From positions 2,970,001-3,002,000 of the forward strand of contig NC_014034.1 in NCBI RefSeq assembly GCF_000021865.1: DNA of 32,000 nt, read 5' to 3'. Each line of letters opens with the position of its first letter. The stretch's first letter is position 1. This DNA is from Rhodobacter capsulatus SB 1003 (GTDB lineage: Bacteria > Pseudomonadota > Alphaproteobacteria > Rhodobacterales > Rhodobacteraceae). The position numbers were made by a program, and so were the translations under genes. The notes under the pieces were generated by a model. That model was not told the DNA's origin. It saw only the letters and a list, made by a program, of their open reading frames with translations, and did not search any database. Shown here piece after piece: positions 1,496-26,778 of this stretch.

Positions 1496-1579
1496 GGGTG
1501 ACGAGCTGCAAGGTGCGGCAGCGGACTGTAACTCCGCCGGGGAGACCCACGCCTGGTTCGATTCCAGGGTCACCCACCA
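1496..1579 (+). tRNA. tRNA-Tyr (anticodon GTA), class II with long variable arm, CCA encoded
   Basis: Hand fold: acceptor GGGTGAC/GTCACCC; anticodon stem GCGGA/TCCGC with loop CTGTAAC (GTA); variable arm CGGGGAGACCCACG; T arm CCTGG-TTCGATT-CCAGG; discriminator A plus CCA. Total 84 nt. Caveat: position 8 is G and the D arm is atypical (see findings). Confidence 0.85.
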
Positions 1580-2649: not shown

Positions 2650-2887
2650 GCCTGCTCCATAGTGACGCACGGCGGGTTTCCCTGACTTGCCGGATCGCCA
2701 CGACGGCGCGACCCTCGCCCCGAGACGCTCGTATACGGTGACACGCGCATCCGTCCGGGGCCTTGCCGACCGGCTTCGGCATCCTGCGGATCCGGGGCGC
2801 TCGCGGACTTTGAAGCGCCAGGGGTCATTGCCGGATTCGGATCATCGCCCGGGCGTCAACCATTGCGACCATGCTCAGGGGAAACAG

Positions 2888-6082: not shown

Positions 6083-9000
6083 ATGAAACCGAACTTCGCC
6101 CTCAATCTCTCGCATGACGGAATCGGATTGCTTCACCGCGGCAAGAGCGGCTGGGAGCGGGTGGGCGAGGTGGCGCTGGACGCCCCCGATTTCGGCGAGC
6201 GGCTGACCGCGCTGCGCCGCGCCGCAAAGACGCGCGCGCCCGAGGGCGTGACCACGAAGATCGTCGTCCCCGCCTCGCAGATCCTTTACACCGAGATCAC
6301 CGCCCCCGGGCCGCAATCCGCCGTGCGGCGTCGGCAGATCGCCGATGCGCTGGAGGGGATGACGCCCTATGCGGTGCCCGATCTGGTCTTTGACTGGTGC
6401 GGTCAGGGCGAGGTGGTGCAGGTCGCCGTCGTCGCGCGTGAAACGCTTGCCGAGGCCGAGGCCTTTGCCGATGATTGCGGCTTCTTTCCGGTGTCCTTCG
6501 TGGCCGCCCCCGATCCGGCGCAATTCGCGGGCGAGCCTTGGTTCGGCATCACCACCACCGCCCCCGCGCATCTGCCGCAGGGCGCAAGGATCGAACGCGA
6601 CACCGAGGCGCTGCCGCTGGATCTGCTGCACGCCGCCGCCGCTCCGGTCGCCCCCGCGCCTGAACCCGAACCTGCGCCCGCGCCCGCGCTTCAACCTGCG
6701 CCCGAACCCGCGCCCGAGATTTCGCCTCCGGCGCAGGCGCTGACGCCCCCGGCCCCGGCGCAGACCGCGCCCGAACCGCCCGCCGCCAAACCCGCGGCAG
6801 AGGTCGCCCCCGTCAAGGCGCCCGCGGCAGAGGCCGCCCCGATCCCGACCGAACCGACCCCGGCCGCCGACCCGAAACCGGCCCCGAAACCGGCGCAAAA
6901 ACCCGCCGCCAAACCCGCGCCTGAACCGGAAAAGGCCGCCGCCCCGGTTGCCCCGGCCACGCCCGCGACGGAGGCCGCAGAGGCCCCGGCCGCCGCGCCG
7001 AAGCCTGCCAAGCCGCAAGCCGCAGAGCCGCCGAAAGCCGCGGAGCCCACGCCGCCCGCCCCCGCCGCGCCGAAAGCGAAGCCCGAGCCGCAACCGAAGC
7101 CCGCGCCGCAACCGACGCCGGAAGCGCAGGGCAAGCCGGAAGCGCAGGCCAAGTCCGAGCCGCAGCCCAAGCCGCAACCGAAGCCGGAGGCCCAGTCCAA
7201 ACCGGACCCCGCCCCGAAAGCGCCCGCCGCCAAGGCGGAGACCCCGGCCCTGGCCGAGAAGGGCCTCGATCTGCTGGCGGCGCTGGAAGAAACGCAGCTG
7301 AGCGGCATCGACACCGTGCCGCCGCTGAAGATCGACATGCCCGAGGCCCCCGCCGCCGCGCCGCGTCCGGGCGATGCCGCCCGCGCCGGGGCTGCGGCCC
7401 GCAAGCCGCTGCCGGGCGCGGCCCGTCCCGGAACGACGCCCGACGGCGCAGACAGCGCAAAACCCGCGCCGCGCAAACCGCTGCTGGCCGAGACCGACCG
7501 CCCCGCTTCCGCCGCCGCCGACCCGGCCGCGCCGCTCAGGCAACCGGACCTGCCCGCCGCCGCCGAGGCCCCCGGCGCGACCGAGCCCTTGCGCAAGATC
7601 GCCGAGGACGGGCGCCGTCTGGCGGCGCTTGGGGCGGCGGCGCTCGAGACGACCGCGAGCAAGGCGCTGGCCAAGGCGCGCGACCTGCGTCCGGGCGCGG
7701 CCACGGCCGAGCCCTCCGCCGCCGAGGCCGCGCCCGAGGCCGATCCCGCAGAGGCGCGGACGGTTTTCGGCGCCCGCAAGACGCCCCGGATCGGCGGCAA
7801 GCCGAAATACGTGGGCGTGACGCTGCTGGGCGGGCTGGTGGCCTTCCTGGCCATCGCCGCGCTGTGGTCGAGCTTCCTGATCGAGCCCGAGGCCCCGACC
7901 GAGGCCCCGGCCCCGACCGAGGCGATCGCCACCGCCCCCGCGGCGCCGGACGCCACACCCGAAGCCGCCACCGCCCCGCAGGCGCCCGCCCCGACACCGC
8001 CCGCAAGCCCGGCGACGGATGCGGTCCCGGCGACGGACACGCCGCCCGAACCGACGCCGCCCGCGACGGCGACGCCCGCCCCCGAAACGCCTGCGCCAGA
8101 GACGCCCGCGACTGCGACGCCCGCCCCTGAAACGCAAGCCCCCGCGGCGGAAGCGCCCCTGACGCTGCCCGCGCTGCCGACCCTGCCGCCGCTCACGACG
8201 CCGCCCGCGGCAACGGCCCCCGAGGGTCAGCCGCCCGTTCAACCGGCCGTCCCGGGGGCTCCGGCCGCCGCGCAGGCGACGCCGAGCCGCGACGGCACGC
8301 TGACCGCCGAGGGCTTCACCCTGTTCGAGGGCACGCCGCCGTCGAAATCGAAACCGCGGCCCGCCTCGGTCAGCCGTGCCGCGACGGAAGCCGCCGAAGC
8401 GGCCGCGGCCCCGCCCGCCGATCCGGCGCTGAAAAACGCCCGGCCGAAAGCCCGCCCGGCCTCGGTCGCGGCGGCTGCGGCGAAAGCGGCCGCGACCCCG
8501 CCCGCCGCCACGGAGCCCGCAACGCCCCCCGGCGAGGCCGCCCCGGCCGCCAGCCCCGAGGAGGGCGCGCTGCTGGCCCCGGGCCTCTCGCCCGATCTGG
8601 CGCGGGTGCTGCGCCGGGCGCAGCCGAAGGAACGGCCCGGCTCGGTCGAACGGCGTGCCGCTGCCGCGCTGGCCGAGGCCGAGGCCGCGAAAGCCGCCGC
8701 CGAGACGGCGCTTGCCGCGGAAACCGCCGCGGCAGAGGCCGGGCTCGCCTCCTCCCGCCGTCCGATGACGCGGCCGCGCAATTTCGAAGCCTCGGTGCAA
8801 AGCGCGCTGGCCGCCGCCATCGCCGCCGAACCGCCGCCCCCGGCGCGCGTCGCCGCGGTCGAGCCCGCCCCCGTCGCGCCGGAAAAACCCGTCCGCGCCA
8901 AGCCCTCGCCGCCGCCCGAACCGACGGTGATTTCCGGCCCCGATGTCGAGACCGGCGAGGTCGAATCCGCCGCGGTGATCCCGCGCGGGCCCACCGCCGC

Positions 9001-9241
9001 CTCGGTCGCGCGCGAAGCGACGCAAAAGAACGCGCTCGATCTGAACAAGATCTCGCTGATCGGGCTTTACGGCACCCCCGGCAGCCGCCGCGCGCTGGTG
9101 CGGATGCCGAATGGGCGCTTCTTCAAACTGCAGGTCGGCGACCGGATCGATGGCGGCCGCGTCACCGCGATCGGCGACAGCCAGATGACCTATCAGAAGG
9201 GCAACCGCCCGATCACGCTCAAGCTGCTCAAGGGCGGTTGA
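6083..9241 (+). CDS. 1052-aa Pro/Ala-rich single-pass membrane protein with globular N- and C-terminal modules
   Basis: ATG at 6083 with AAGG upstream and normal GC3-rich codon usage. Layout: globular N-terminal ~165 aa (MKPNFALNLSHDGIGLLHRGKSGWERVGEV...), long P/A/E/K low-complexity tracts, one TM segment (YVGVTLLGGLVAFLAIAALWSSFLI), and a C-terminal beta-rich module (ISLIGLYGTPGSRRALVRMPNGRFFKLQVGDRIDGGRVTAIGDSQMTY). The fully overlapping antisense ORF is rejected. Confidence 0.8.
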   Translation: MKPNFALNLSHDGIGLLHRGKSGWERVGEVALDAPDFGERLTALRRAAKTRAPEGVTTKIVVPASQILYTEITAPGPQSAVRRRQIADALEGMTPYAVPDLVFDWCGQGEVVQVAVVARETLAEAEAFADDCGFFPVSFVAAPDPAQFAGEPWFGITTTAPAHLPQGARIERDTEALPLDLLHAAAAPVAPAPEPEPAPAPALQPAPEPAPEISPPAQALTPPAPAQTAPEPPAAKPAAEVAPVKAPAAEAAPIPTEPTPAADPKPAPKPAQKPAAKPAPEPEKAAAPVAPATPATEAAEAPAAAPKPAKPQAAEPPKAAEPTPPAPAAPKAKPEPQPKPAPQPTPEAQGKPEAQAKSEPQPKPQPKPEAQSKPDPAPKAPAAKAETPALAEKGLDLLAALEETQLSGIDTVPPLKIDMPEAPAAAPRPGDAARAGAAARKPLPGAARPGTTPDGADSAKPAPRKPLLAETDRPASAAADPAAPLRQPDLPAAAEAPGATEPLRKIAEDGRRLAALGAAALETTASKALAKARDLRPGAATAEPSAAEAAPEADPAEARTVFGARKTPRIGGKPKYVGVTLLGGLVAFLAIAALWSSFLIEPEAPTEAPAPTEAIATAPAAPDATPEAATAPQAPAPTPPASPATDAVPATDTPPEPTPPATATPAPETPAPETPATATPAPETQAPAAEAPLTLPALPTLPPLTTPPAATAPEGQPPVQPAVPGAPAAAQATPSRDGTLTAEGFTLFEGTPPSKSKPRPASVSRAATEAAEAAAAPPADPALKNARPKARPASVAAAAAKAAATPPAATEPATPPGEAAPAASPEEGALLAPGLSPDLARVLRRAQPKERPGSVERRAAAALAEAEAAKAAAETALAAETAAAEAGLASSRRPMTRPRNFEASVQSALAAAIAAEPPPPARVAAVEPAPVAPEKPVRAKPSPPPEPTVISGPDVETGEVESAAVIPRGPTAASVAREATQKNALDLNKISLIGLYGTPGSRRALVRMPNGRFFKLQVGDRIDGGRVTAIGDSQMTYQKGNRPITLKLLKGG
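7117..7152 (+). repeat. 18-bp in-frame tandem repeat x2 (PEAQGK/PEAQAK) inside the Pro/Ala-rich gene
   Basis: GCCGGAAGCGCAGGGCAA (7117-7134) is followed directly by GCCGGAAGCGCAGGCCAA (7135-7152), identical at 17 of 18 positions. Similar short in-frame repeats occur at about 8060-8140 (TATPAPET units). Confidence 0.7.
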
Positions 9242-13243: not shown

Positions 13244-16087
13244 TCAAAGCTTGCCTTTCAGCCCCATCAGCGCCGCCGCAAACGGGTTGTCGGGATCGAT
13301 CGGCTTGTCCTTTTTCGGCGGATGCGATTCGAAGCCGCGGCCACGGTCGTCCTGCGGCTTGCCCTTGCCCCAGGGCTTGCCGCCCTTCGGCCCGCCCTTG
13401 CCGCCCTCGCCACCGAACTTGCGCTCGCCGCGCGGGCCATCCTCGTCGCGATGGCGCGGCTTGCCGCCCTCGTGACGCTTCTCGCCGCCCTTGTGATCAC
13501 CGCCGCGGTCACCGCCGCGATCACCGCCCTTGTGCGGACGGTCGCCGCCCTTGTGATCGCCACCGCGGGCCTCGCGCGGGCCGCGATGGCCCTCGCCGCC
13601 GCCTTCGCGCGGTTCGCGACGCGGGCCGCGTTCGGTGCGCGGACGCGGCGCCCAGGCGAAGGTGTAAAAGCTCTCCATCTCGACCGGAACGGCTTCCACC
13701 TCGGCCTGCGCCTCGGCGATCGGCGAGGCTTCCTCGGGGATCGGATTGTCCGAGCCCGCCTCGGGCGCCTTTGCCTCGACCACGGGTTTCGCCTTTTCGC
13801 GTTCGCCCTTTTCGGCGCGATAGCCCAGCCCGCCCATCAGATCGGCGAATTGTTCCAGCGTCATGCCGGTGATCGACAGCATGTCCGGCGTGGCTTCAAA
13901 GCCTGCCTTGCTGTCTTGCGTGCGCAGCATGTCGGCCAGCCGCTCCAGCATGTCGATGCGGATCGCCCGCACCCCCGCCGGACGATAGCCCGAGCGCGTA
14001 TAGGCCGAGACCGGCACTTCCGCGATATAGGGGATCGTCACCAGACCGGGCGGCGGGCTTTCGGGGAATTCGGACAGCCCGTCCCAAAGCGAGGCCAGCA
14101 CCAGCCGCAGCCGCGTCGGCGCGGGTTTCAGCAACAGCTGCTGGAAGATCGTGTATTGGCCAAAGCGCACGCCATGCTTGCGCAGCGCGCCGCGGGCCTC
14201 CTGATCCAGCTCCTTGACCTCGGCCGCGACGCCCTCGCGCGGCAGGATGCCCATATGCTCGACCAGCCGGAAGGCAAAGCCGCGGGCCAGACCCGTCAGC
14301 GCCTCGTCGCGGCTCATCGCCAGAAGCGGCTCGAAGAGCGCGGCGATCTTGCGGTCGATGAAATGCTGCAGACGGCGGCGGACCTTTTCGGCAACCTCGG
14401 GACCGGCTTCCTCGTCGACGAAGGGCTCGACCGCGGGTTTCAGCGGATCGGCGCCCTTCACCAGCTTGCCCACCGCCTGCGTGCCCCACATCAGCCCGCC
14501 TTGCTCGGTGAAATCCATCTCGGTGTCGGGGGCATTGTAGAAGCGGTCGGACCGCAGGCTGAATTCGGGCTTCAGCGCCTCATAGGCGGCCCGCGCCAGC
14601 ATCTTCGCCTCGTCGGGCGAGGACGTGGTGTCCTGCCGGAAGCGGAAGCCCTCAAGACGGCCGGCGAATTCGCCTTCGACCATCACTTCGCCCTTGTCGT
14701 TCACCTCGGCCACGAGGGTCTCCTTCTGCTTGAGCCGCCGCAGCAGAACACTGGTGCGCCGGTCCACAAATCGTTGGGTCAGCGCGCCATGCAGCGCATC
14801 CGACAGGCGGTCTTCTACAGCGCGCGTCTCTTCGCGCCAATGGGTTTCGTCATCCACCCAGCCTTTGCGTTGCGCAACATAGGTCCAAGTGCGGATGAAG
14901 GCGAGACGTTTCGACAAAGTGTCGATATCGCCCGAGGTCCGGTCGATGCGTTCGATCTGGGATTTCAGCCAGTCCGAAGGCACGCCCTTGCCCGTCTGCA
15001 AAAAGCCGAAGATGCGCGCCAGAAGGGTCGCATGTTCGGTTTCGGAAATCGAGCGGAAATCGGGGATGCGGCAGGTCTCCCACAACAGCCGCACATCGGC
15101 GGGGGCGCGGACGCGGTCGCGGATCTCGGGCATCTCCGACAGGCTTTTGAGCGCGCGCAGATCATCGGCCTCGCGGCCGCGGCTGAGCCATTCGTTCTGC
15201 GGGCTTTCCTCGAGCGACTGGATCAGCCGCGGCACGGTGCCGAATTCAAGCCGCGGATTGCGCCATTGCAGCCGCTGGATCGGCGCGAAGCGATGCTCCT
15301 CGATCGCCTCGATCACCTCTTCGGGCAGGGGATGCGCCTCGCCGGTGATGCCAAAGGTACCGTCCGTCGTGTGCCGCCCGGCCCGGCCCGCGATCTGGCC
15401 CAGCTCATGCGGGAAGAGATGCCGCATCCGCCGGCCGTCGAACTTCGCCGTGGCGGAAAAGGCGACATGTTCGATGTCGAGGTTCAGCCCCATGCCGATC
15501 GCATCGGTGGCGACGAGGTAATCGACATCGCCATTTTGATACATCGCCACCTGCGCATTGCGGGTGCGGGGCGAAAGCGCCCCCATCACCACCGCCGCGC
15601 CGCCCTTTTGGCGCCGGATCAGCTCGGCGATCGCATAGACATTTTCAACCGAAAAGCCCACGATTGCCGCCCGTGGCTTCATCCGGCTTATCTTTTTCGA
15701 ACCTGCCCAGGAAAGTTTGGACAAACGCTCGCGCCGGGCGAATTGCACTTTCGGAACCAGCGCCGCGATGGCGCCCTTCATCGCATCCGAGCCCAGAAAC
15801 AGCGTCTCGTGCAACCCGCGCATGTACAAAAGACGCTCGGTGAAGACATGGCCGCGCTCGGGATCGGCGCAAAGCTGGATCTCGTCGATGGCAACGAAAT
15901 CGGCGCCCACTTCGGGCATCGCCTCGGTGGTGCAGACCCAGTATTGCGCCCGTTCGGGAACGATCCGCTCCTCGCCCGTGACCAGCGCCACGACCGAAGG
16001 GCCGCGCGCTTTCACGATGCGGTCATAGACCTCGCGCGCCAGAAGCCGCAGCGGCAGGCCGATCACCCCGGTGCGGTGCGAGAGCAT
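13244..16087 (-). CDS. SUV3-like superfamily 2 ATP-dependent (RNA) helicase, large ORF lacking its Walker A segment; basic Gly/Arg-rich C-terminal tail
   Basis: 947-aa ORF with helicase motifs AIDEIQL (II), VATDAIGMGLNLD (V) and QIAGRAGR (VI). The C-terminal ~135 aa is rich in GGDHKGG/GGDRGG repeats. The P-loop is encoded upstream, beyond an in-frame TAG (see next feature). Confidence 0.85.
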   Translation of the reverse strand: MLSHRTGVIGLPLRLLAREVYDRIVKARGPSVVALVTGEERIVPERAQYWVCTTEAMPEVGADFVAIDEIQLCADPERGHVFTERLLYMRGLHETLFLGSDAMKGAIAALVPKVQFARRERLSKLSWAGSKKISRMKPRAAIVGFSVENVYAIAELIRRQKGGAAVVMGALSPRTRNAQVAMYQNGDVDYLVATDAIGMGLNLDIEHVAFSATAKFDGRRMRHLFPHELGQIAGRAGRHTTDGTFGITGEAHPLPEEVIEAIEEHRFAPIQRLQWRNPRLEFGTVPRLIQSLEESPQNEWLSRGREADDLRALKSLSEMPEIRDRVRAPADVRLLWETCRIPDFRSISETEHATLLARIFGFLQTGKGVPSDWLKSQIERIDRTSGDIDTLSKRLAFIRTWTYVAQRKGWVDDETHWREETRAVEDRLSDALHGALTQRFVDRRTSVLLRRLKQKETLVAEVNDKGEVMVEGEFAGRLEGFRFRQDTTSSPDEAKMLARAAYEALKPEFSLRSDRFYNAPDTEMDFTEQGGLMWGTQAVGKLVKGADPLKPAVEPFVDEEAGPEVAEKVRRRLQHFIDRKIAALFEPLLAMSRDEALTGLARGFAFRLVEHMGILPREGVAAEVKELDQEARGALRKHGVRFGQYTIFQQLLLKPAPTRLRLVLASLWDGLSEFPESPPPGLVTIPYIAEVPVSAYTRSGYRPAGVRAIRIDMLERLADMLRTQDSKAGFEATPDMLSITGMTLEQFADLMGGLGYRAEKGEREKAKPVVEAKAPEAGSDNPIPEEASPIAEAQAEVEAVPVEMESFYTFAWAPRPRTERGPRREPREGGGEGHRGPREARGGDHKGGDRPHKGGDRGGDRGGDHKGGEKRHEGGKPRHRDEDGPRGERKFGGEGGKGGPKGGKPWGKGKPQDDRGRGFESHPPKKDKPIDPDNPFAAALMGLKGKL

Positions 16088-18031: not shown

Positions 18032-18245
18032 GGGCGGAGAAGGAAAGGCATCGCCTTTCCCCGCCCGCAGCGCCCCCTGGTCGAAAGACCGTTTCCGCGA
18101 GGCACAACAGAGGCCGGCGCCCGGCCCGGCGGGCGAGAAGCGCCCGCCAGGGGCGGGGCGGGCGCTGGCCGGGACGCTTTGGCGCCCCGGCGGTCCCGGG
18201 GCCGGTGTCGCGCGTGACCTCGGCGATGGCCTCGGTCATGGCCCG
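18032..18245 (+). repeat. ~205-bp structured intergenic repeat, copy B
   Basis: Begins 10 nt after the hydrolase stop. Hairpins: GGAAAGGC-ATC-GCCTTTCC (18042-18060), AGCGCCCGCC/GGCGGGCGCT (18139-18166), GCCGGGACGC-TTTG-GCGCCCCGGC (18168-18191). Aligns with copies A and C. Confidence 0.8.
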
Positions 18246-18253
18246 CGAGGCCC

Positions 18254-18979
18254 TTAAAGCGTGATCCGACCGAAGCCGTCGCGCAGGGCCTCGGACCAGG
18301 CCTGCGACATCGCCGCGAATTGCGCGTCGTCCTTTTCGATCCGCTTGCGCAGCCCGACCCGGCAGGCGTCTTTCTCGATCACCGCCAGATCCAGCGGCAT
18401 GCCCACCGACAGGTTCGAGCGCAGCGTCGAATCCATCGACAACAGAACCGCCTTTTGCGCATCCTCGAGCGACGTCCCCGGCCGCACGACGCGGTCCAAA
18501 ATCGGCTTGCCGTATTTGTGCTCGCCGATCTGCAAGAAGGGCGTGTCCTCGGTCGCCTCGATGAAATTGCCCTCGGGATAGACCAGGAACATCCGCATCG
18601 CCCCGCCCTTGCGCTGCCCCGCCACGATCATCGAGGCAGAGACGGTGACCTTGGACGCGTTCATCTTGTGATCGATGTCCTGGCGCACCGACGCCAGCGT
18701 GTTGCCGATGATCTCGGCCACGGCCAGCATCGTCGGCGCCTGCATGATCGAGGTGTCGGCGCTGGTTTCGGGATGCTCGATCGCCTCGCGCAGCCGGGCA
18801 ATCGTCGTCTGCGTCACCGAAAGCGAGCCCGCGGTCAGGATCGTCACCACCCGCTCGCCCGGCTCCTCGAAGACGAACATCTTGCGATAGGTCGCAATAT
18901 TGTCCAGCCCCGCATTGGTGCGGGTGTCGGACAGAAGAACCATGCCCTGATCGAGCAGCAGGCCCACGCAATAGGTCAT
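18254..18979 (-). CDS. Anbu-type proteasome-like peptidase (ancestral beta subunit)
   Basis: The internal ATG (CAT at 18977-18979) of ORF 18254..19291 gives 241 aa starting MTYCVGLLLDQGMVLLSDTRTNAG. That places Thr directly after the initiator Met, as expected for an N-terminal-nucleophile proteasome beta-like fold. It is the last gene of the ATP-grasp/alpha-E/transglutaminase operon. Confidence 0.85.
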   Translation of the reverse strand: MTYCVGLLLDQGMVLLSDTRTNAGLDNIATYRKMFVFEEPGERVVTILTAGSLSVTQTTIARLREAIEHPETSADTSIMQAPTMLAVAEIIGNTLASVRQDIDHKMNASKVTVSASMIVAGQRKGGAMRMFLVYPEGNFIEATEDTPFLQIGEHKYGKPILDRVVRPGTSLEDAQKAVLLSMDSTLRSNLSVGMPLDLAVIEKDACRVGLRKRIEKDDAQFAAMSQAWSEALRDGFGRITL

Positions 18980-19007
18980 CATTCCCCCGGAAAAGCAGGC
19001 GGCCACA

Positions 19008-19820
19008 TTATTGTTGCACGGCCTCCAAGGCAACCGTGACATCGAGACGCTCGGACCCGTCGCCCTGCGCGATGCCCTTGATCGGCGCCGCCTCATGCGC
19101 GTCGAGCCCCGAGCCGATGCGGATATAGCGCGCATCGGGGCAGCATTCATTGGCCGGATCAAAGCCGATCCAGCCGATGTTTTCCACCCAGATCTCGGCC
19201 CAGGCATGAGCGGCCTCGTGCGGCGCACCATCCTCGCGCGCGAAAAGATAGCCCGAGACATAGCGCGCGGGCATTCCCACGGCGCGGGCACAGGCGATCA
19301 AGGCCTGGGCGTGATCCTGACAGACCCCCTCGCCCTGGGCCAAAGCCTCGGCCGCGGTCGTATGGGCATGCGTCGTGCCGGGGCGATAGGCGATGGCGTC
19401 GCTGACCGCGCGCGACAGCCGATGCGCCCGGTCAAGCGGCTCCTTGACGCCCGTTACCGCGGTTTCGGCCAGATCGCGCAAGGCATGATCGATCCAGGTC
19501 GCCGAGGTCTCGCGCAGATAGGCAAAGGGCGAGACGATCTCGCGGTGGCCGCGCAGCACCCCCGCGGTGTCGGTGGTTTCGACCTGCCCGATGGCGGAAA
19601 TCGTCACCTCGCTCACCGGACCGCGCAGCGACCAGCCCTCGACCTTGTCGCCCGCGCCGTCGCGGAAATTGCCGCCGCGCAGGCCGCCTTCGACCGCGAC
19701 ATCCCAGCGGATCGTGCGCTGGCCATCGAACCGCGAGGGAAACAGCCGCAAGGATTGCACGGCCCCGCGCATCGGCGCGTCATATTCGTAGGTGGTGACG
19801 TGATGGACCGTCAGGATCAT
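19008..19820 (-). CDS. transglutaminase-like cysteine protease family protein
   Basis: 270-aa ORF. Catalytic-Cys context GEGVCQDHAQALIACARAVGMPARYVSGY, then HAWAEIW and GWIGFDP (Cys-His-Asp arrangement). The ATG overlaps the alpha-E stop (ATGA). Confidence 0.85.
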   Translation of the reverse strand: MILTVHHVTTYEYDAPMRGAVQSLRLFPSRFDGQRTIRWDVAVEGGLRGGNFRDGAGDKVEGWSLRGPVSEVTISAIGQVETTDTAGVLRGHREIVSPFAYLRETSATWIDHALRDLAETAVTGVKEPLDRAHRLSRAVSDAIAYRPGTTHAHTTAAEALAQGEGVCQDHAQALIACARAVGMPARYVSGYLFAREDGAPHEAAHAWAEIWVENIGWIGFDPANECCPDARYIRIGSGLDAHEAAPIKGIAQGDGSERLDVTVALEAVQQ

Positions 19821-20770
19821 CGCGCTTCTCCGCTCAGATAAGCCGCCTGCACCATGTCGGACAATTCGCCGACATCGCGGATGAAGCGGGTCAGGAATTC
19901 ATGCAGGCCCTCGTCGAAGATCTCCTCGACGCGGGTTTCGGCGATCTCGCCCACAAGCGCGCGCGCCCGCATCTGCGCCGCGCCGGATTTCTGGTACCCC
20001 CTTGCCAAGGCATCCAGATTTTCCATCGCCATGGTAACGGTGGTGACCAGAGACCGCGGCGATTGCGGATTGAGGATCAGGAAATGCGCGATCTTCGCCG
20101 CGGTGATCTCGCCGCCGTAAGCCCAGTGGAAGGCCCGATGGGCGGAAAGCGCCCGAAGCAGCGTCTGCCATTGGTAATTGTCCAGCCCCGAGCCGATGAA
20201 ATCGACCGAGGGCAAGAGGACGTAATATTTCACGTCGATCAGCCGCGCGGTGTTGTCGGCCCGTTCCAGCGCGAAGCCAAGGTTCAAAAACGCATAGCCG
20301 TCGTTGCGCAAAAGCGTCGCGTCAATCGCGCCGCGCACCAGCGCCGCCTGCCGCGTCACCCATTCGGTCAGCTCGGTCAGCTCCATTTCCGAGCGCGGCT
20401 TGCGCTCAAGCTGCCGCATCTCCTGAAACGCGCCATTGAGCGCATCCCAGACCTGAGAGGTCAGCGCCGTGCGCACGATGCGCGCATTTTCCCGCGCCCG
20501 TTCGATGCAGCTGACGACCGAGGACGGGTTGTCCCGGTCAAAGAACAGATAGCTTTCGATGTTGCGCTGCACCGGGTCGCCATATTTCGCGGCAAAGCCC
20601 TCGGCGGTGCCCGAGGCCTGCAGCAGGCTCTCCCATTCGCTGCGGTAGCCATGCCCGGCCGAGGGCATCAGCGCGATGCGGGCGCCCACTTCCAAAAGCC
20701 GCGCCATGGTTTCGGCGCGTTCGATGTAACGCGCGATCCAGAACAGATTTTCAGCGGTCCGGCTCAGCAT
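19817..20770 (-). CDS. alpha-E domain protein
   Basis: 317-aa all-helical ORF starting MLSRTAENLFWIARYIERAETMARLLEV, the characteristic alpha-E N-terminus. It starts 5 nt after the ATP-grasp stop. Confidence 0.85.
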   Translation of the reverse strand: MLSRTAENLFWIARYIERAETMARLLEVGARIALMPSAGHGYRSEWESLLQASGTAEGFAAKYGDPVQRNIESYLFFDRDNPSSVVSCIERARENARIVRTALTSQVWDALNGAFQEMRQLERKPRSEMELTELTEWVTRQAALVRGAIDATLLRNDGYAFLNLGFALERADNTARLIDVKYYVLLPSVDFIGSGLDNYQWQTLLRALSAHRAFHWAYGGEITAAKIAHFLILNPQSPRSLVTTVTMAMENLDALARGYQKSGAAQMRARALVGEIAETRVEEIFDEGLHEFLTRFIRDVGELSDMVQAAYLSGEAR

Positions 20771-20774
20771 GCTC

Positions 20775-22187
20775 TTACTCCGCCAAAACCCAGGTGTCCT
20801 TGACCCCGCCGCCCTGAGACGAGTTCACGACCAGCGATCCCTCTTTCAGCGCGACACGGGTCAGACCGCCCGGCACCAGTTCGATTTTCTCGCCCACAAG
20901 GCAATAGGGCCGCAAATCGACATGCCGCGGCGCGATCCCCTCCTCGACAAAGGTCGGCGTGGACGACAGCGCCAAGGTCGGCTGGGCGATGTAGTTTTCC
21001 GGATGCGCCGCGATCTTGGCGCGGAAGGTCTCGATCTGATCGGCTGTCGATTTCGGCCCCACCAGCATGCCGTAACCGCCCGAGCCATGCACCTCCTTCA
21101 CCACCAGCTCGCCCAGATGGTCGAGCACATATTTGCAATCCTCGGGCTTGGCGCATTGCCAGGTGGGGACATTGTTCAAAAGCGGCTCTTCGCCCAGATA
21201 GAACCGGATCATCTCGGGCACGAAGGTATAGACCGCCTTGTCATCGGCCACGCCCGCGCCGGGCGCCGAACAGATCGACACCCCGCCCGAACGGTAGACA
21301 TCCATCAGCCCGGGAATGCCCAGCATCGAATCCGGCCGGAAACAAAGCGGGTCAAGGAAAGCGTCATCGATGCGCCGGTAGATCACGTCGAGCTTCTTCG
21401 GCCCCTCGGTGGTTCGCATCCAGACGAAGCCGCCTTCCACGAACAGATCGGCGCCCTCGACCAGTTCGACGCCCATCAGATCGGCGAGGAAACTGTGTTC
21501 GTAATAGGCGCTGTCGTAATGGCCCGGCGTCAGAATGGCGATCGTCGGCTCGCGTTCGCATTTCGCCGGGGCAACACTGGCCAGCGTGCGGCGCAGCGCA
21601 TCGGAATAGCCGTCGACCGGCTCGATGCGGTTTTCGCGAAACAGCTGCGGGAACATCCGCATCATGATTTCGCGGTTTTCCAGCATGTAGCTGACCCCCG
21701 AAGGCGTGCGGCAATTGTCTTCCAGCACGAAGAACTCATCCGCGCCGGTGCGCACGATGTCGATCCCGACGATGTGCGAATAGATCCCGCGCGGCGGGGT
21801 GAAGCCTGCCACGGCGCGCTCGAAGGCCTCGTTCTGAAACACCATCCGCGCCGGGATCTTGCCCGCCCGGACGATTTCGGCGCGGCCATAGACATCGAGC
21901 AGAAAGGCATTCAGCGCCCGCGCCCGCTGCTTGATGCCGCGTTCGAGCTTGCGCCATTCCCCTTGCGTGAAGACGCGCGGAAACATGTCGAAGGGGATCA
22001 GCCGGTCCGGGTCGCCCCCCTCGCCATAGACCGCAAAGGTGATGCCGATCCGGCGAAAAAGCGCCTCTGCCTCGGCCTGTTTCATTGCGCGCAATGCGGC
22101 GGGCATGGCCTTCGTCCAGTCTTCGAGCCGCGCATAGGGCTCGCGGACGGTGCCGCCTTCGTACATTTCGTTGAAATAAGTCGTCAT
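20775..22187 (-). CDS. circularly permuted ATP-grasp (type 2) amidoligase-like protein
   Basis: 470-aa ORF: MTTYFNEMY..REPYARL..FRRIGITFAVYGE..DRLIPFDMFPRV...FVLEDNCRTPSGVSYMLENR... I recognise this as the family that heads Anbu/alpha-E/transglutaminase operons. GAGGGAA Shine-Dalgarno upstream. Confidence 0.85.
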   Translation of the reverse strand: MTTYFNEMYEGGTVREPYARLEDWTKAMPAALRAMKQAEAEALFRRIGITFAVYGEGGDPDRLIPFDMFPRVFTQGEWRKLERGIKQRARALNAFLLDVYGRAEIVRAGKIPARMVFQNEAFERAVAGFTPPRGIYSHIVGIDIVRTGADEFFVLEDNCRTPSGVSYMLENREIMMRMFPQLFRENRIEPVDGYSDALRRTLASVAPAKCEREPTIAILTPGHYDSAYYEHSFLADLMGVELVEGADLFVEGGFVWMRTTEGPKKLDVIYRRIDDAFLDPLCFRPDSMLGIPGLMDVYRSGGVSICSAPGAGVADDKAVYTFVPEMIRFYLGEEPLLNNVPTWQCAKPEDCKYVLDHLGELVVKEVHGSGGYGMLVGPKSTADQIETFRAKIAAHPENYIAQPTLALSSTPTFVEEGIAPRHVDLRPYCLVGEKIELVPGGLTRVALKEGSLVVNSSQGGGVKDTWVLAE

Positions 22188-22335
22188 GCGTGATTCCCTC
22201 GCCCTGATTGAATCCTAGGCAGGCCGCGGGGGAAGCGGAAGCGCCGCAGCAGGAAACAGGCCAGAAAGCCGGAAGAAGCCGCCCGATCGCTGTGCGTTTG
22301 CGTAAAAATTGGGCATCACCGCAATCCAGACCCGG

Positions 22336-22364
22336 CTTGCACGGTGCCTGCCCTGCCCCTATCT
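22336..22364 (+). promoter_or_regulatory. sigma32 (RpoH)-type heat-shock promoter candidate upstream of pepF
   Basis: CTTGCAC (22336-22342), a 13-nt spacer, then CCCCTATCT (22356-22364). Compare the classical CTTGAAA-N13/14-CCCCATNT consensus. It ends 26 nt before the pepF ATG. Confidence 0.45.
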
Positions 22365-22390
22365 CTGATCCGACCCGCAAGGAGAAAGCC

Positions 22391-24217
22391 ATGATCCGTT
22401 CCTTCCCCGCCCCGAAATTCGACGCCGCCCCCGCGCAGGGAGGGGCCGGAGAGTTCGGCGCCCTGCCCGACTGGGACCTGAGCGATCTTTACACCGCCCC
22501 CGACGCGCCGGAATTCCTGCATGACATGGCCTGGCTCGAGGCCGCTTGCGCCTCCTTTGCCAAGGATTACGAGGGGCAGCTGGCCGACCTGGACGCCGCG
22601 GGCATGGCGGACTGCATCGCGCGCCACGAGGCGATCGAGACCGTGGCCGGACGGATCATGTCCTATGCGGGGCTGCGCTATTATCAGAACACCACCGACG
22701 CCGAACGCGCCAAATTCATGTCGGATGCGGGCGACAAGATCACCAGTTTCACCACGCCGCTGGTCTTCTTCAGCCTGGAATTCAACCGCATTGACGACGC
22801 GCGCTATGAAGCGGTCTTTGCCGATCCGCTTGTGGCGCGGTTCAAGCCGGTCTTTGACCGGATGCGGGCGATGAAACCCTATCAGCTTTCGGACGAGCTG
22901 GAAAAGTTCCTGCACGATCAATCCGTTGTGGGGGCCTCGGCGTGGAACCGGCTGTTTGACGAAACCACCGCGGCGCTGCAGTTCACCGTTCAGGGCGAGA
23001 CGCTGAACCTTGAAGCCACGACGACGCTGATGAGCGATCACGACCGGGGCAAGCGCGAGGCGGCGGCGCGCGAGCTGGCGCGGGTCTTCGGGCAGAACGT
23101 CAAGCTTTTCGCCCGGGTGCACAACACGCTTGCCAAGGAAAAGGAAGTTGAGGACCGCTGGCGCAAGATGCCCACGCCGCAGCTGGGCCGCCACCTGTCG
23201 AACCATGTCGAGCCCGAGGTGGTCGAGGCTTTGCGCAATGCGGTCGTGGCCGCCTATCCGCGGCTCTCGCATCGCTATTATGCGCTGAAGGCGAAATGGC
23301 TGGGGCTTGAAAAGCTGCAGGTCTGGGACCGCAACGCGCCGCTGCCCAGCGAAACCCCGCGCAAGATCCTCTGGGACGAGGCGAAGGCCACGGTTCTGGG
23401 CGCTTACGGCGCGTTTTCGCCCCGCATGGCCGAGATTGCCCAGCCTTTCTTTGACAAAGGCTGGATCGATGCCGGGGTGAAACCGGGCAAGGCGCCGGGG
23501 GCTTTTGCCCATCCGACCGTCACCACCGTGCACCCCTATGTGATGCTGAACTATCTGGGCAAACCGCGCGACGTGATGACCTTGGCGCATGAGCTGGGCC
23601 ATGGCGTGCATCAGGTTCTGGCCGCGAAACAGGGGCCGATGCTCTCGGACACGCCGCTGACGCTGGCGGAAACGGCCAGCGTTTTCGGCGAGATGCTGAC
23701 CTTCCGCGCGCTTCTGGATGCGGCCAAGACCCCTGCGGAACGCAAGCAGCTGCTGGCGGGCAAGGTCGAGGACATGATCAACACCGTCGTGCGGCAGATC
23801 GCGTTTTACGATTTCGAATGCAAGCTGCATGCGGCGCGCGCGCAGGGGGAACTGACGCCCGAGGATATCAACGCGCTCTGGATGTCGGTGCAGGCGGAAA
23901 GCCTTGGCCCGGTGTTCGAATTCATGCCGGGCTATGAGACCTTCTGGACCTATATCCCGCATTTCGTGCATTCGCCCTTCTACGTCTATGCCTATGCTTT
24001 CGGCGACGGGCTGGTGAATGCGCTTTACGCCACCTATGCGGCGGGCCTGCCCGACTTCCAGACGAAGTATTTCGAGATGCTGGAGGCGGGCGGCTCGAAA
24101 CACCACAAGGATCTTCTGGCGCCCTTCGGTCTGGATGCCTCGGATCCGGCCTTCTGGGACAAGGGGCTGTCGATGATCGCGGGGCTGATCGACGAGCTCG
24201 AGGCGATGGAGGCCTGA
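22391..24217 (+). CDS. pepF: oligoendopeptidase F (M3B family zinc metallopeptidase)
   Basis: ATG at 22391 after AAGGAGAAAG, in frame inside ORF 22208..24217. 608 aa with HEXXH (LAHELGHGVH) and M3B-like overall layout. Confidence 0.88.
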   Translation: MIRSFPAPKFDAAPAQGGAGEFGALPDWDLSDLYTAPDAPEFLHDMAWLEAACASFAKDYEGQLADLDAAGMADCIARHEAIETVAGRIMSYAGLRYYQNTTDAERAKFMSDAGDKITSFTTPLVFFSLEFNRIDDARYEAVFADPLVARFKPVFDRMRAMKPYQLSDELEKFLHDQSVVGASAWNRLFDETTAALQFTVQGETLNLEATTTLMSDHDRGKREAAARELARVFGQNVKLFARVHNTLAKEKEVEDRWRKMPTPQLGRHLSNHVEPEVVEALRNAVVAAYPRLSHRYYALKAKWLGLEKLQVWDRNAPLPSETPRKILWDEAKATVLGAYGAFSPRMAEIAQPFFDKGWIDAGVKPGKAPGAFAHPTVTTVHPYVMLNYLGKPRDVMTLAHELGHGVHQVLAAKQGPMLSDTPLTLAETASVFGEMLTFRALLDAAKTPAERKQLLAGKVEDMINTVVRQIAFYDFECKLHAARAQGELTPEDINALWMSVQAESLGPVFEFMPGYETFWTYIPHFVHSPFYVYAYAFGDGLVNALYATYAAGLPDFQTKYFEMLEAGGSKHHKDLLAPFGLDASDPAFWDKGLSMIAGLIDELEAMEA

Positions 24218-24284: not shown

Positions 24285-25460
24285 ATGGGCTGGGGCAAAG
24301 GCATCGGATGGGGCCTGGGCGGGGCCGTGATCCTGGCGGCGGGGGCCTTCTTCGCCCTTGCCCCCGGCATCGTCGAGCGGGGGCAGAACCGGGTCGTGCC
24401 GCATGAGCCCTGGCCGGTCTCGGCGCAGGCGGCGGCGCTGCACAAGACGCTCGTCATCGGCGATTGGCATTCCGATGCGCTTTTGTGGGACCGGGATCTG
24501 CTGACGCGGTCCGACCGCGGCCATGTCGATCTGCCGCGGCTGCGGGCGGGCAATGTGGCGGTGCAGGTCTTCACCACGGTGACGAAAACCCCCGCCGGGA
24601 TGAATTACGACCACAATGCCAAGGACGCGCGGGACAACATCACGCTTCTGGTGATGGGGCAGTTGCGGCCGGTGCGGAGCTGGTTCAGCCTTGCCGAACG
24701 CGCGCTGGATCAGGCGGCGCGGCTGCGGGCGATAGCCGAGGCGGCGCCCGATCAGCTGGTGGTGGTGCGGCGGGCGGGGGATCTCGACCGGGTGCTGGCG
24801 GCGCGGGCGCAAGGCGCGCAGACCGTGGCCGGGATTCTGGGCGCCGAGGGCGGTCATGCCCTGGAAGGCCGGATCGAAAATCTGGATCGGCTTTACGACG
24901 CCGGGTTTCGGCTTCTGGGGCTCACGCATTTCTTCGACAACGAACTGGGCGGCTCGCTGCATGGCGAGGATGACGCCGGGCTGACGCCCTTCGGGCGGCA
25001 GGTGGTTGAAAGGATGGTGCAAAAGCGCATGGTGATCGACCTTGCCCATGCTTCGGAACCGATGGCGCGCGAAGTGCTGGCGATGCCGGGCACGCGGCCG
25101 ATCGTCAGCCACGGCGGCATTCACGGCGTCTGCCCGGTGAAGCGCAATTTCCCCGATGCGCTGATGCGGGAGATCGCGGCGAAAGGCGGTCTGATCGGGA
25201 TCGGCGCCTGGGCCGAGGTGACCTGCGACGCGACGCCCGCGGGCGTGGCCCGGTCGATCGTGGCGGCGGTGCGACTGGTGGGCGAGGATCACGTCGCGCT
25301 CGGCTCGGATTTCGACGGCGCGGTCGAGACGGAATTCGACAGCTCGGAACTGGCGGCGCTGACGCAGGCGTTGCTGGATGCGGGGCTGAGCGAGAGCGTG
25401 ATCGCCAAGGTCATGGGCGGCAACATGATCCGCTATCTGCGCGAGACGCTGCCGCAGTAG
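24285..25460 (+). CDS. membrane-anchored dipeptidase, peptidase family M19
   Basis: 391-aa ORF with N-terminal TM (GLGGAVILAAGAFFALA). M19 motifs: GDWHSDAL (HxD), GAEGGHAL, IDLAHAS, GSDFDG. Confidence 0.85.
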   Translation: MGWGKGIGWGLGGAVILAAGAFFALAPGIVERGQNRVVPHEPWPVSAQAAALHKTLVIGDWHSDALLWDRDLLTRSDRGHVDLPRLRAGNVAVQVFTTVTKTPAGMNYDHNAKDARDNITLLVMGQLRPVRSWFSLAERALDQAARLRAIAEAAPDQLVVVRRAGDLDRVLAARAQGAQTVAGILGAEGGHALEGRIENLDRLYDAGFRLLGLTHFFDNELGGSLHGEDDAGLTPFGRQVVERMVQKRMVIDLAHASEPMAREVLAMPGTRPIVSHGGIHGVCPVKRNFPDALMREIAAKGGLIGIGAWAEVTCDATPAGVARSIVAAVRLVGEDHVALGSDFDGAVETEFDSSELAALTQALLDAGLSESVIAKVMGGNMIRYLRETLPQ

Positions 25461-25679: not shown

Positions 25680-26495
25680 TCAGTCCCAGAGACTTTCGAC
25701 CTCGAACCGGGTCAGACGCGGATGCGCAGGCGGGCCGAAAGCCGCAAGGCTGGCGAATTGCGGGAATTGCGCCTCGAAAAGCGACAGCATCCGCGGATCG
25801 ATCATCCGCTCCACCCCCTCGCCGGGGTGGAAGGCCTCGACCTCGAGCCCCGCGACGCGCAGCGAGCCGTGCTGTTCCAGCACCACATGATAGACCGTAA
25901 CCGGCGCCGAGGGGGTGACCTCGATCACGCTGATGCCGTCGAGGAAGGCGCGGGCGGGCACATAGGCCGCCTCGAGGCCCGAAACCCGGCGCAGGCGCGG
26001 ATCGCGCAGGCACAGCCGCGCCCGCGGGCCCAGCACCAGATCCAGGGCGGGCCGTCCCGCCCCGAAAGCCTCGGCGGTGATCCGCGTCAGGCTGACCTGT
26101 TCCTCCAGATCGCGGCCGGTCTCGGCGCCGGGATAGATCACCATCGAGCCGATCCAGCACACCCGTTCCGCCCGGCCCTCGGCGGTCAGGACGCTTTGGC
26201 CGGGCTGCAGATCCTCGATCGCGACCGGACCGTCTTCGGTCATCAGCACCGAGCCCCGCGCCAGCGCCGAGAAGGCCTCCTCGAAAAGCGGCGTCGCCGG
26301 GGCCAGCCGGGTGCTGGTCTGCACCGCGCCCTCAGGCGTCAGCCAGCAGGACTGATACCGCCGCGTCAGCGGCATCGCGCGCAGCGATTTCGCCGCCAGC
26401 AGGGGCGGCTTGCGGGCGCTCAGCCCGGCAGAGGGATCATCGCGGTCCACGGGCAGGGCAGCCTGCCCGGCCCCGAGCCGGTGGGTAATCGACAT
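25680..26495 (-). CDS. Hint (Hedgehog/intein-like) domain protein
   Basis: The internal ATG (CAT at 26493-26495, GGAAGG upstream) gives 271 aa. Its central region (LARGSVLMTEDGPVAIEDLQPGQSVLTAEGRAERVCWIGS ... DLVLGPRARLCL ... VYHVVLEQHGSLRVAGLEVEAF) matches the bacterial Hint-domain pattern common in Rhodobacterales. Confidence 0.75.
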   Translation of the reverse strand: MSITHRLGAGQAALPVDRDDPSAGLSARKPPLLAAKSLRAMPLTRRYQSCWLTPEGAVQTSTRLAPATPLFEEAFSALARGSVLMTEDGPVAIEDLQPGQSVLTAEGRAERVCWIGSMVIYPGAETGRDLEEQVSLTRITAEAFGAGRPALDLVLGPRARLCLRDPRLRRVSGLEAAYVPARAFLDGISVIEVTPSAPVTVYHVVLEQHGSLRVAGLEVEAFHPGEGVERMIDPRMLSLFEAQFPQFASLAAFGPPAHPRLTRFEVESLWD

Positions 26496-26558
26496 GGCAC
26501 AGCCTTCCGGTCTGGTCACATCTGCGACGGCCCCCACCGCATGCAGAAAGACCGGGCC

Positions 26559-26587
26559 AGAATGCCCGCCGGGCGGCCCTGCGTCAA
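26559..26587 (-). promoter_or_regulatory. sigma70-like promoter candidate for the Hint-domain gene
   Basis: On the minus strand: TTGACG (26587-26582), a 17-nt spacer, then CATTCT (26564-26559), about 60 nt upstream of the ATG. Sequence match only. Confidence 0.3.
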
Positions 26588-26778
26588 ATTTCGTGAAGAA
26601 TTGCTGAACGGCGGCAACCAATCCGCCCCGCCTGCCCGCCACTTGTTGCGGTTACGGCAACAATGCCCGGATTTCGCCGCAATCGGATCGAATCATCCGC
26701 TTTCGGCCGGGGGTGGCAGCCCCCGGCCGCTGCGGCAGCCGATCATGCCCGAAGGCGCGGCCCCAAAGGCGGAAAGGA

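Follow-up and report, generated by a model that had tools for sequence, protein, structure and literature searches.

The Anbu operon of Rhodobacter capsulatus SB 1003 follows a conserved palindrome, a candidate NtrC operator

Anbu is thought to stand near the evolutionary root of the proteasomes, and the operon that encodes it has reportedly been the subject of studies by Valas & Bourne in 2008, Iyer et al. in 2009, Fuchs et al. in 2017, Piasecka et al. in 2018 and Vielberg et al. in 2018. Here, we describe one such operon and the conserved palindrome that precedes it in Rhodobacter capsulatus SB 1003, in a stretch of 32,000 nucleotides (nt) of its chromosome (contig NC_014034.1, positions 2,970,001 to 3,002,000), which we call the window and from whose first letter all positions are counted. 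The Anbu operon was defined by Valas & Bourne in 2008, as related in PMC3235984, and Iyer et al. in 2009, in the restatement given in PMC3495828, predicted a peptide-ligase system whose transglutaminase-like domain would act as a peptidase and remove the ligated tags again. Structures of Anbu homologues published in 2017-2018 revealed an open dodecameric split ring, or lock-washer, with a proteasome-like active site (PMC5666114, PMC6376114), and Pa-Anbu binds proteasome inhibitors (PMC5666114). A survey from 2021 gives no known function for Anbu, and in the literature that we searched an established substrate for the Anbu operon was not found.

Is the locus of SB 1003 a typical representative of this system? 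Four open reading frames (ORFs) of the same direction span 18254-22187 on the minus strand, limits that are exact in the ORF list and in a minus-strand reading of 18150-22420 and at which the original prediction had already placed a packed set of four ORFs. They encode a circularly permuted type-2 ATP-grasp protein of 470 amino acids (aa) (gene 1, 20775-22187; from Pfam, PDB and an exact database match), an Alpha-E protein of 317 aa (gene 2, 19817-20770; from Pfam and an AlphaFold2 model), a transglutaminase-like protein of 270 aa (gene 3, 19008-19820; from Pfam, PDB and its catalytic triad) and Anbu of the Anbu-1 subtype with 241 aa, beginning MTYCVG (gene 4, 18254-18979; from PDB, Pfam and diagnostic residues). 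Letter for letter, the four proteins are the adjacent SB 1003 entries ADE86529, ADE86528, ADE86527 and ADE86526 (genes 1-4), which are annotated as DUF404/circularly permuted ATP-grasp, DUF403/Alpha-E, transglutaminase domain protein and proteasome-type protease. The gene order had been recognised as that of the conserved Anbu operon, in agreement with PMC5666114, PMC6376114 and PMC3235984, and the locus is the canonical Anbu-1 operon of R. capsulatus SB 1003. We count this copy as ordinary because it is already annotated and because its order, junctions and catalytic residues are kept across relatives; it holds no new component or architecture, and the operon has been described since 2008-2009. 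To call it a good model locus, as was originally done, was an overstatement, since it is an ordinary, annotated copy and since work on this operon in Pseudomonas and Yersinia already exists. Operon, gene order and annotation were thus known before; what goes beyond them is a conserved palindromic operator.

A scan of one genome per species yielded 80 Paracoccaceae loci with an ATP-grasp gene that is 83-98% identical. When the regions upstream of these relatives were aligned, we found one sharply conserved element, TGC-N11-GCA with an A/T-rich centre, represented in the window by the 17-base-pair palindrome TGCCCAATTTTTACGCA (minus-strand letters) at 22299-22315, a candidate NtrC enhancer site centred 120 nt upstream of the ATP-grasp ATG. 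In 58 of the 80 loci, a strict pattern places the palindrome 100-160 nt upstream of the ATP-grasp gene. A symmetrised position weight matrix built from those same strict-pattern sites (family consensus TGCCCAAAATTTGGGCA) gave 67 hits of 15 bits or more in 969 kilobases of related loci, with 62 of them at the orthologous position 100-160 nt upstream, a count that is partly circular because the matrix was built from the same sites. The pattern TGC-N2-W7-N2-GCA occurs once in the window, against 0.02 occurrences expected, and the palindrome stays with the ATP-grasp gene where a DNA-ligase/exonuclease pair replaces pepF.

Other elements around the palindrome were also considered. A possible weaker second site of the form YGC-N11-GCR, CGCACAGCGATCGGGCG, may lie 2 nt downstream of the first at 22280-22296; a second site of this form is found in 11 of 71 loci against about 4 expected, and on the control side in 5 of 71. 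Another hit of the weight matrix in the window, at 29101 (16.5 bits), falls within the coding sequence of lgt and was rejected as a chance match. The palindrome is also situated about 65 nt upstream of the likely start site of the divergent pepF gene, so that it might serve both units. A single small ORF is present in the flanks; it has 34 codons with a GTG start (22215-22319, minus strand), runs across the spacer between operator and promoter and was regarded as non-coding because this spacer is not conserved among relatives.

Is the palindrome an NtrC site? Its geometry is that of NtrC sites, for which the Rhodobacterales motif YGCM-N4-TT-N2-TRGCA has been reported and mutagenised at the Paracoccus nasT promoter (PMC5424462). 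In an independent scan of metagenome contigs for exact TGCMCAAAWTTTGKGCA, which returned at least 120 loci of mixed G+C content, the motif was located directly upstream of nitrogen-assimilation genes in at least four loci. It precedes a glnB-glnA operon in L106 (61% G+C), with a second TGC-N11-GCA 6 nt away, and a PII gene in L143; in L117 it lies about 110 nt upstream of a sigma54 promoter, TGGCACGCGTCGTGCA (TGGCACG-N4-GTGCA), that itself precedes a PII gene, and in L175 it stands before a Fis-like gene followed by what appears to be a glutamate synthase gene. By a rough estimate, chance alone would account for a few tenths of such a case in about 100 independent loci. In eight near-identical metagenome contigs (L109, L111, L116, L126, L129, L139, L158 and L189), of which one comes from a human gut metagenome, the exact palindrome TGCCCAAATTTTGTGCA precedes a LysM-G5-M23 peptidase gene by 116 nt; the palindrome probably has an unrelated use there, in another phylum.

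Earlier studies connect the operon with nitrogen status as well. In Pseudomonas putida, nitrogen limitation induces the Anbu operon more strongly than any other (PMC3235984), and in Burkholderia cenocepacia the cluster of ATP-grasp, Alpha-E and transglutaminase genes is NtrC- and sigma54-dependent under nitrogen limitation (PMC5491218). In the supplementary table of PMC5343134, the reconstructed NtrC regulon of one proteobacterial group lists PF04168 and PF01841; COG3484 is enriched among predicted sigma54 regulons, and operon domains of the PF04168/PF01841 type co-vary with urea-metabolism domains in marine metagenomes (PMC3597751). The original prediction had stated that neither substrate nor trigger is established. 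This still holds for the substrate, but the trigger has to be counted as partly known because nitrogen limitation and NtrC induce the operon in P. putida and B. cenocepacia. Given that the motif precedes nitrogen genes in metagenomes and given the published nitrogen-limitation data, NtrC is the best candidate regulator, and we consider it probable that it controls the operon through the palindrome. NtrC of R. capsulatus activates with the housekeeping RpoD, not RpoN (PMC6925177), and indeed the upstream alignment contains no conserved -24/-12 element, which fits this use of RpoD. With NtrC working together with the housekeeping sigma factor, the operon would switch on when fixed nitrogen runs out.

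The candidate core promoter, of the sigma70 type, is TTCCGC (22235-22240), a spacer of 17 nt and TAGGAT (22212-22217), together 22212-22240 on the minus strand. Two conserved blocks in the upstream alignments, 'gCTTyc' and 'CTGCCTAAG / CTGATTAAC', may correspond to such a weak sigma70-type core, which would place the palindrome near -100, and the poor -35 element would fit a promoter that depends on an activator. Two -24/-12-like strings picked out by eye, TGGCCTGTTTCCTGCT and GGCACCGTGCAAGC, had suggested a sigma54 promoter and were rejected, as neither is conserved in the upstream alignment; GGCACCGTGCAAGC belongs to the divergent pepF promoter (TTGCAC at 22337-22342, 17 nt, TATCTC at 22360-22365, plus strand). 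At the other end, a weak terminator-like hairpin at 18113-18130 (minus strand), about 125 nt past the Anbu stop in the convergent spacer of 232 nt before an alpha/beta-hydrolase gene, is a candidate only, and the terminator scan of the region found 2 such structures against 3.2 expected after shuffling, i.e. not above chance.

The four genes are tightly packed. The junction between the ATP-grasp and Alpha-E genes reads TAA-GAGC-ATG, a gap of 4 nt and not of the 5 nt originally given; the overlap of the Alpha-E stop and the transglutaminase-like start as ATGA (19817-19820) and the 28 nt between the transglutaminase-like stop and the Anbu ATG (18979) were both read at the junctions as they had been described. 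A direct read places a Shine-Dalgarno sequence, GAGGGA (22195-22200, minus strand), 7 nt 5' of the ATP-grasp ATG, and purine-rich boxes, GGCGGAG, GGAGAA and GGGGGA, precede genes 2-4. Judged from this spacing, the four genes probably form one translationally coupled unit that is transcribed together. The long ORFs that face them on the opposite strand are artefacts of the kind expected in a genome with 63-70% G+C.

These junctions are also kept among the relatives, in which every contig of sufficient length carries the other three genes behind the ATP-grasp gene in unchanged order (72 complete loci of 80). The gap between the ATP-grasp and Alpha-E genes is 4-7 nt in 68 of these 72 loci, the junction between the Alpha-E and transglutaminase-like genes is -4 or -1 in 70, and the gap before anbu mostly amounts to 26-50 nt. 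In 13 loci, a gene of about 220 aa, unmatched in Pfam and lacking in the window, sits between the transglutaminase-like gene and anbu. It belongs to a subclade of Pseudotabrizicola, Pseudorhodobacter and relatives (for example L017:9294-9962, plus strand; also L020, L024, L025, L031, L034, L036, L037, L044, L047, L048, L053 and L066, and partially L015), carries a hydrophobic C-terminal segment, is 42-62% identical between the other copies and that of L017, and could be a lineage-specific accessory of the Anbu operon.

Profile searches placed all four ORFs in the Pfam families that had been named for them, with full-length coverage and E-values that put chance out of the question, and the family signatures quoted in the original prediction are all present; the assignments thus withstood the check that had been proposed with them. 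Gene 1 matches CP_ATPgrasp_2 (PF14403) over the entire profile (1-374 of 374, E=5.9e-165, 549 bits at a cut-off of 32) and CP_ATPgrasp_1 (PF04174) with E=4.9e-145; a PDB sequence search aligned residues 3-469 with the solved structure 3n6x (E=3.9e-189), whose title, 'putative glutathionylspermidine synthase', is the depositor's label. It is predicted from sequence to be an ATP-dependent carboxylate-amine/peptide ligase, and its Yersinia orthologue frees phosphate from ATP (PMC6376114). Gene 2 covers the whole profile of Alpha-E (PF04168; 1-294 of 294, E=1.2e-91), a family of 5,732 clusters at 50% identity (E up to 1e-3), and the protein is presumed to be the partner of the ATP-grasp enzyme. 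It carries TAENLFWIARYIERAE at residues 5-20 and two ERAxNxAR-type motifs, E17-R18...R24 and E169-R170...R176. The residues conserved among 81 family members of 30-60% identity, namely W11, R14, E17, R18, R24, R93, N95, R100, G165, E169, R170, R176 and P238-R239-S240, are all kept. An AlphaFold2 model computed with 55 homologues is confident and all-helical with 15 helices (predicted local-distance score pLDDT 85.8, predicted template-modelling score pTM 0.87). A sequence search found no PDB relative of the protein, and a Foldseek comparison of the model with the PDB found nothing significant (best E=0.34, template-modelling scores below about 0.3 among the matches listed). Alpha-E thus stands as a fold without a solved analogue, which supports the view of an under-studied system but gave no clue to function.

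Gene 3 scored above the cut-offs for Transglut_core (PF01841, E=3e-26) and Bact_transglu_N (PF08379, E=9.7e-16), and it is related to the 'putative cysteine protease' 3isr in the PDB (E=1.2e-10). Its papain-like triad Cys167-His205-Asp221, in which the cysteine belongs to GVCQDH with histidine and aspartate downstream, aligns with that of 3isr and is invariant in 78 sequences; the enzyme is a predicted cysteine peptidase, isopeptidase or amidase. NCBIfam contains no specific model for genes 1-3.

In a PDB sequence search, gene 4 matched the designed Anbu-1 consensus 5loy over residues 2-237 (E=6.9e-80), 5nyj over residues 1-239 of 241, including the region of the C-terminal helix H5 (E=2.7e-72), and the Anbu entries 5nyf, 5nyw and 5lox with E=2.6e-59 at the weakest; the match to the Proteasome family (PF00227) has E=3.4e-7. 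Thr1, which follows Met directly without a propeptide, Asp17 and Lys32 (Lys32/33 in the definition of Anbu) are invariant in 72 relatives and are the candidate catalytic residues named for YbAnbu (PMC6376114). The presence and invariance of these residues and of the Cys167 triad in 72-78 relatives bears out the claim that the copy is intact. The S1 pocket consists of T20, Y30, T48, L52 and T55, kept in 71-72 of the 72 relatives. In Pa-Anbu the amphiphilic Anbu-1 pocket is formed by T20, F30, T48, L52 and S55, whereas the Anbu-2 pocket is basic (PMC5666114); the pocket of SB 1003 is therefore of the Anbu-1 type with two conservative changes, not of the basic Anbu-2 type. Taken by its sequence, gene 4 is an Anbu-1 protein, a proteasome beta-like hydrolase of the N-terminal nucleophile (Ntn) class without propeptide. 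The gene starts with a tandem ATG-ATG (18979-18984, minus strand), and the upstream in-frame ATG, 3 nt away, would give MMT... Some database entries use it (242 aa, MMTY..., with the threonine at position 3 rather than 2); it is present in only 5 of 74 relatives and therefore is not the conserved start, which is the ATG adjoining the Thr codon.

Taken together, one ligase-type and two hydrolase-type active sites are intact and are co-inherited behind a conserved palindromic operator. We lean, by a small measure, towards an NtrC-activated unit of amide ligation and peptidolysis that serves the turnover of peptide or protein nitrogen under nitrogen limitation. NtrC at the palindrome would, with the housekeeping sigma factor, switch the operon on when fixed nitrogen is exhausted; the ATP-grasp enzyme would use ATP to activate a carboxylate as acyl-phosphate and form a peptide or isopeptide amide bond on a peptide or protein substrate, with Alpha-E as its substrate-binding or specificity partner; and the Cys-His-Asp enzyme and the Thr1 hydrolase Anbu would cleave the amide-linked products or marked substrates. 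The net role would be a controlled turnover or recycling of peptide or protein nitrogen during nitrogen limitation, in a unit to which neither an AAA+ unfoldase nor a tag-protein gene belongs. Indeed, no AAA+ gene lies among the neighbours of the operon, and with junctions of 4, -4 and 28 nt its genes are too close together to have a tag gene between them.

Several observations weigh against this proposal. Anbu operons as a whole lack a known substrate, product or phenotype, purified Anbu displayed no peptidase activity on standard proteasome substrates (PMC6376114) and no stable complex of the four operon proteins was detected (PMC6376114); these negative in vitro results on Anbu and on complex formation speak against any simple version of the mechanism. 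On the regulatory side, the window palindrome shares only 9 of the 11 positions of the published Rhodobacterales NtrC consensus, and a search of the window for YGCMNNNNTTNNTRGCA with 2 mismatches gave 28 hits against 40 expected. Because consensus matches of that quality are not above chance, we dropped similarity to the published consensus as evidence for NtrC and relied on conservation and metagenome context. In addition, the tandem second site is weak and poorly conserved, the proposed -35/-10 elements match at only 6 of 12 positions, and a generic promoter scan called 0 sites at the proposed core promoter.

Which other functions could account for the operon? The main alternatives part ways over what the substrate would be. 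The same set of one ligase-type and two hydrolase-type active sites, intact in one operon, would also suit reversible protein tagging as proposed by Iyer and Aravind, a published prediction in the form restated in PMC3495828 and PMC6376114. The ATP-grasp/Alpha-E pair would add amino-acid or short-peptide tags, as TTL or RimK ligases do, the transglutaminase-like peptidase would remove them and Anbu would degrade or process the tagged proteins, with a ubiquitin/Pup-like logic that dispenses with a protein tag. The multi-subunit, ring-like architecture of Anbu argues for processive cleavage (PMC5666114), but reports of a tagged protein are lacking altogether, Anbu has no associated AAA+ unfoldase (PMC5666114), nor is one found among the neighbours, and the operon proteins have not been seen to form complexes (PMC6376114), so that we regard this model as possible, on the unlikely side. 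We speculate, more doubtfully still, on a variant in which nitrogen starvation triggers protein marking: ATP-grasp/Alpha-E would append amino-acid or peptide marks to certain proteins, and Anbu, inactive by itself, would be a mark-dependent peptidase or, like the related connectase, a transpeptidase. If this proved true, bacteria would possess in NtrC-switched protein marking a third way of targeting proteins for proteolysis or remodelling, one that needs no tag protein.

That the operon is tied to the nitrogen regulon and that its domains co-vary with those of urea utilisation (PMC5491218, PMC3235984, PMC3597751) can also be read in terms of small-molecule or storage metabolism, where an ATP-grasp enzyme like glutathionylspermidine synthetase would make a free amide compound, such as a gamma-glutamyl, polyamine or oligopeptide metabolite or a nitrogen-rich polymer, which the two hydrolases would mobilise in a pathway of nitrogen storage and release or of scavenging. 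The name under which 3n6x, the closest solved structure, was deposited and the entry 'carboxylate-amine ligase' beside PF04168 in the NtrC regulon table of the PMC5343134 supplement agree with this; the name is a depositor's label, not a tested activity, the S1 pocket and ring assembly of Anbu resemble those of polypeptide-cleaving proteasomal peptidases (PMC5666114), and the conserved unit includes no gene for a transporter or for precursor supply. We hold such a pathway to be rather unlikely. An untargeted bulk proteolysis or deamidation in starvation, raised in PMC6376114 and by Hervas et al. as cited in PMC3235984, would have Anbu degrade damaged or unneeded proteins without tagging and the transglutaminase-like enzyme free ammonia from Gln side chains, with ATP-grasp/Alpha-E in a regulatory or unrelated role. 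In Rhodobacter, the operon does adjoin a divergent pepF and an M19 dipeptidase gene, but in many genera pepF no longer lies beside it, Anbu on its own showed no activity in vitro (PMC6376114) and it would be left unexplained why the ligase pair is so strictly inherited together with the hydrolases and translationally coupled to them, which makes this reading very unlikely. Finally, multi-enzyme operons of unknown function sometimes turn out to be defence systems, and this generic fact is the sole point in favour of an anti-phage or toxin-like module. We disfavour it as extremely improbable: none of the four proteins matched any PADLOC family, the operon has a stable chromosomal position among housekeeping genes across the whole family and its regulation is tied to nitrogen status (PMC5491218, PMC3235984).

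Any tractable handle on the Anbu operon is valuable because the operon is widespread, presumably near the root of the proteasome and without known substrate. R. capsulatus is genetically tractable, its NtrC system is unusually well characterised and the operon has a single, sharply defined and conserved operator; with such a host and such an operator, the question of when the operon is on becomes directly testable. If NtrC control holds, the search for the substrate can focus on nitrogen-starved cells.

The surroundings of the operon follow a family-wide synteny of divergent pepF, operon, a convergent pair of alpha/beta hydrolase and SCP2 genes and a TPR protein. In the window, pepF, encoding an M3 oligoendopeptidase F (22391-24217, plus strand), and the M19 dipeptidase gene (24285-25460, plus strand) are both divergent to the operon. 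In many genera, a LigC-type ATP-dependent DNA ligase gene and a metallo-beta-lactamase-fold gene separate pepF from the operon, an insertion seen in Tabrizicola, Gemmobacter and other genera (L023:3216-5836 and L017:3111-5832, minus strand of the locus; in L023 the metallo-beta-lactamase-fold gene is a weak match). Since this adjacency is lost so often and is one of synteny only, we rejected pepF and the M19 dipeptidase as functional parts of the system.

Further features of the window are listed here for completeness. A Hint-domain protein (PF13403) is encoded at 25680-26642 (minus strand), and a Hint-domain gene recurs near the operon in many related loci. An ORF of 1052 aa (6083-9241, plus strand) lies in a stretch of 73-80% G+C with a strong skew of A over T and has no Pfam match on either strand; it comprises an N-terminal globular part, a long low-complexity part rich in Pro, Ala, Glu and Lys with degenerate repeats of 12-24 nt, one central hydrophobic helix and a conserved-looking C-terminal domain. 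A Suv3-like DEXQ-box helicase of 947 aa (13244-16087, minus strand) ends in a long tail rich in Gly, Arg, Asp and Lys (GGDRGGDHKGG... repeats), and a protein with RTX calcium-binding repeats is encoded at 2687-4531 (plus strand). The sole RNA gene detected in the window is tRNA-Tyr (GTA) at 1496-1579 (plus strand); an Rfam scan of the whole window matched no RNA element.

How does the operon compare with other systems of ligation and proteolysis? The TTL and RimK ligases share the ATP-grasp chemistry, in which an acyl-phosphate is followed by an amide bond, on C-termini or side chains of proteins (PMC3495828), while gene 1 is a circularly permuted variant of the fold with an obligate Alpha-E neighbour and no known substrate. 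Connectase, an archaeal monomeric homologue of the proteasome, shares with Anbu the proteasome-like fold and the N-terminal Thr nucleophile and sets a precedent for such a fold acting as transpeptidase or ligase rather than protease (PMC7980362). It lacks helices H1/H2 and has an insertion of its own, whereas Anbu has the full beta-subunit core and the C-terminal helix H5, and, unlike connectase, Anbu has not been reported to act as a ligase. HslVU and the 20S proteasome have in common with Anbu the Ntn-hydrolase fold, the Thr1 nucleophile and the active-site geometry of the beta subunit; the Anbu system differs from them by the absence of an AAA+ unfoldase, an alpha subunit and a propeptide, and the published Anbu structures are open dodecameric split rings instead of a closed barrel. 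In the Pup-proteasome system, the ligase PafA stands beside a proteasome much as in SB 1003 a ligase stands beside a proteasome-like hydrolase, but the SB 1003 operon has no tag-protein gene, and its ligase is a circularly permuted ATP-grasp enzyme, not the glutamine-synthetase-like PafA. The Anbu operon thus does not belong to the ubiquitin/Pup tagging systems, although its working may be loosely analogous.

Closest are the Anbu operons of Pseudomonas aeruginosa (PA1733 region), P. putida, Yersinia bercovieri and Hyphomicrobium, which contain the same four families in the same order as SB 1003 and, like it, lack an AAA+ partner; their Anbu, too, is of the Anbu-1 subtype, has its Thr1 next to Met with no propeptide in between, and shares Asp17/Lys32 and the kind of S1 pocket. 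The B. cenocepacia cluster I35_5080-5083 shares the triad of ATP-grasp, Alpha-E and transglutaminase genes with SB 1003 (PMC5491218), but its fourth gene encodes a large transglutaminase-like protein, not Anbu, and its promoter is sigma54-dependent (PMC5491218). Compared with the known Anbu operons, nothing structural differs in SB 1003; what likely differs is the regulatory wiring, with NtrC and sigma54 in Pseudomonas and Burkholderia, and with a distal palindrome and a sigma70-like core, free of a conserved -24/-12 element, in R. capsulatus.

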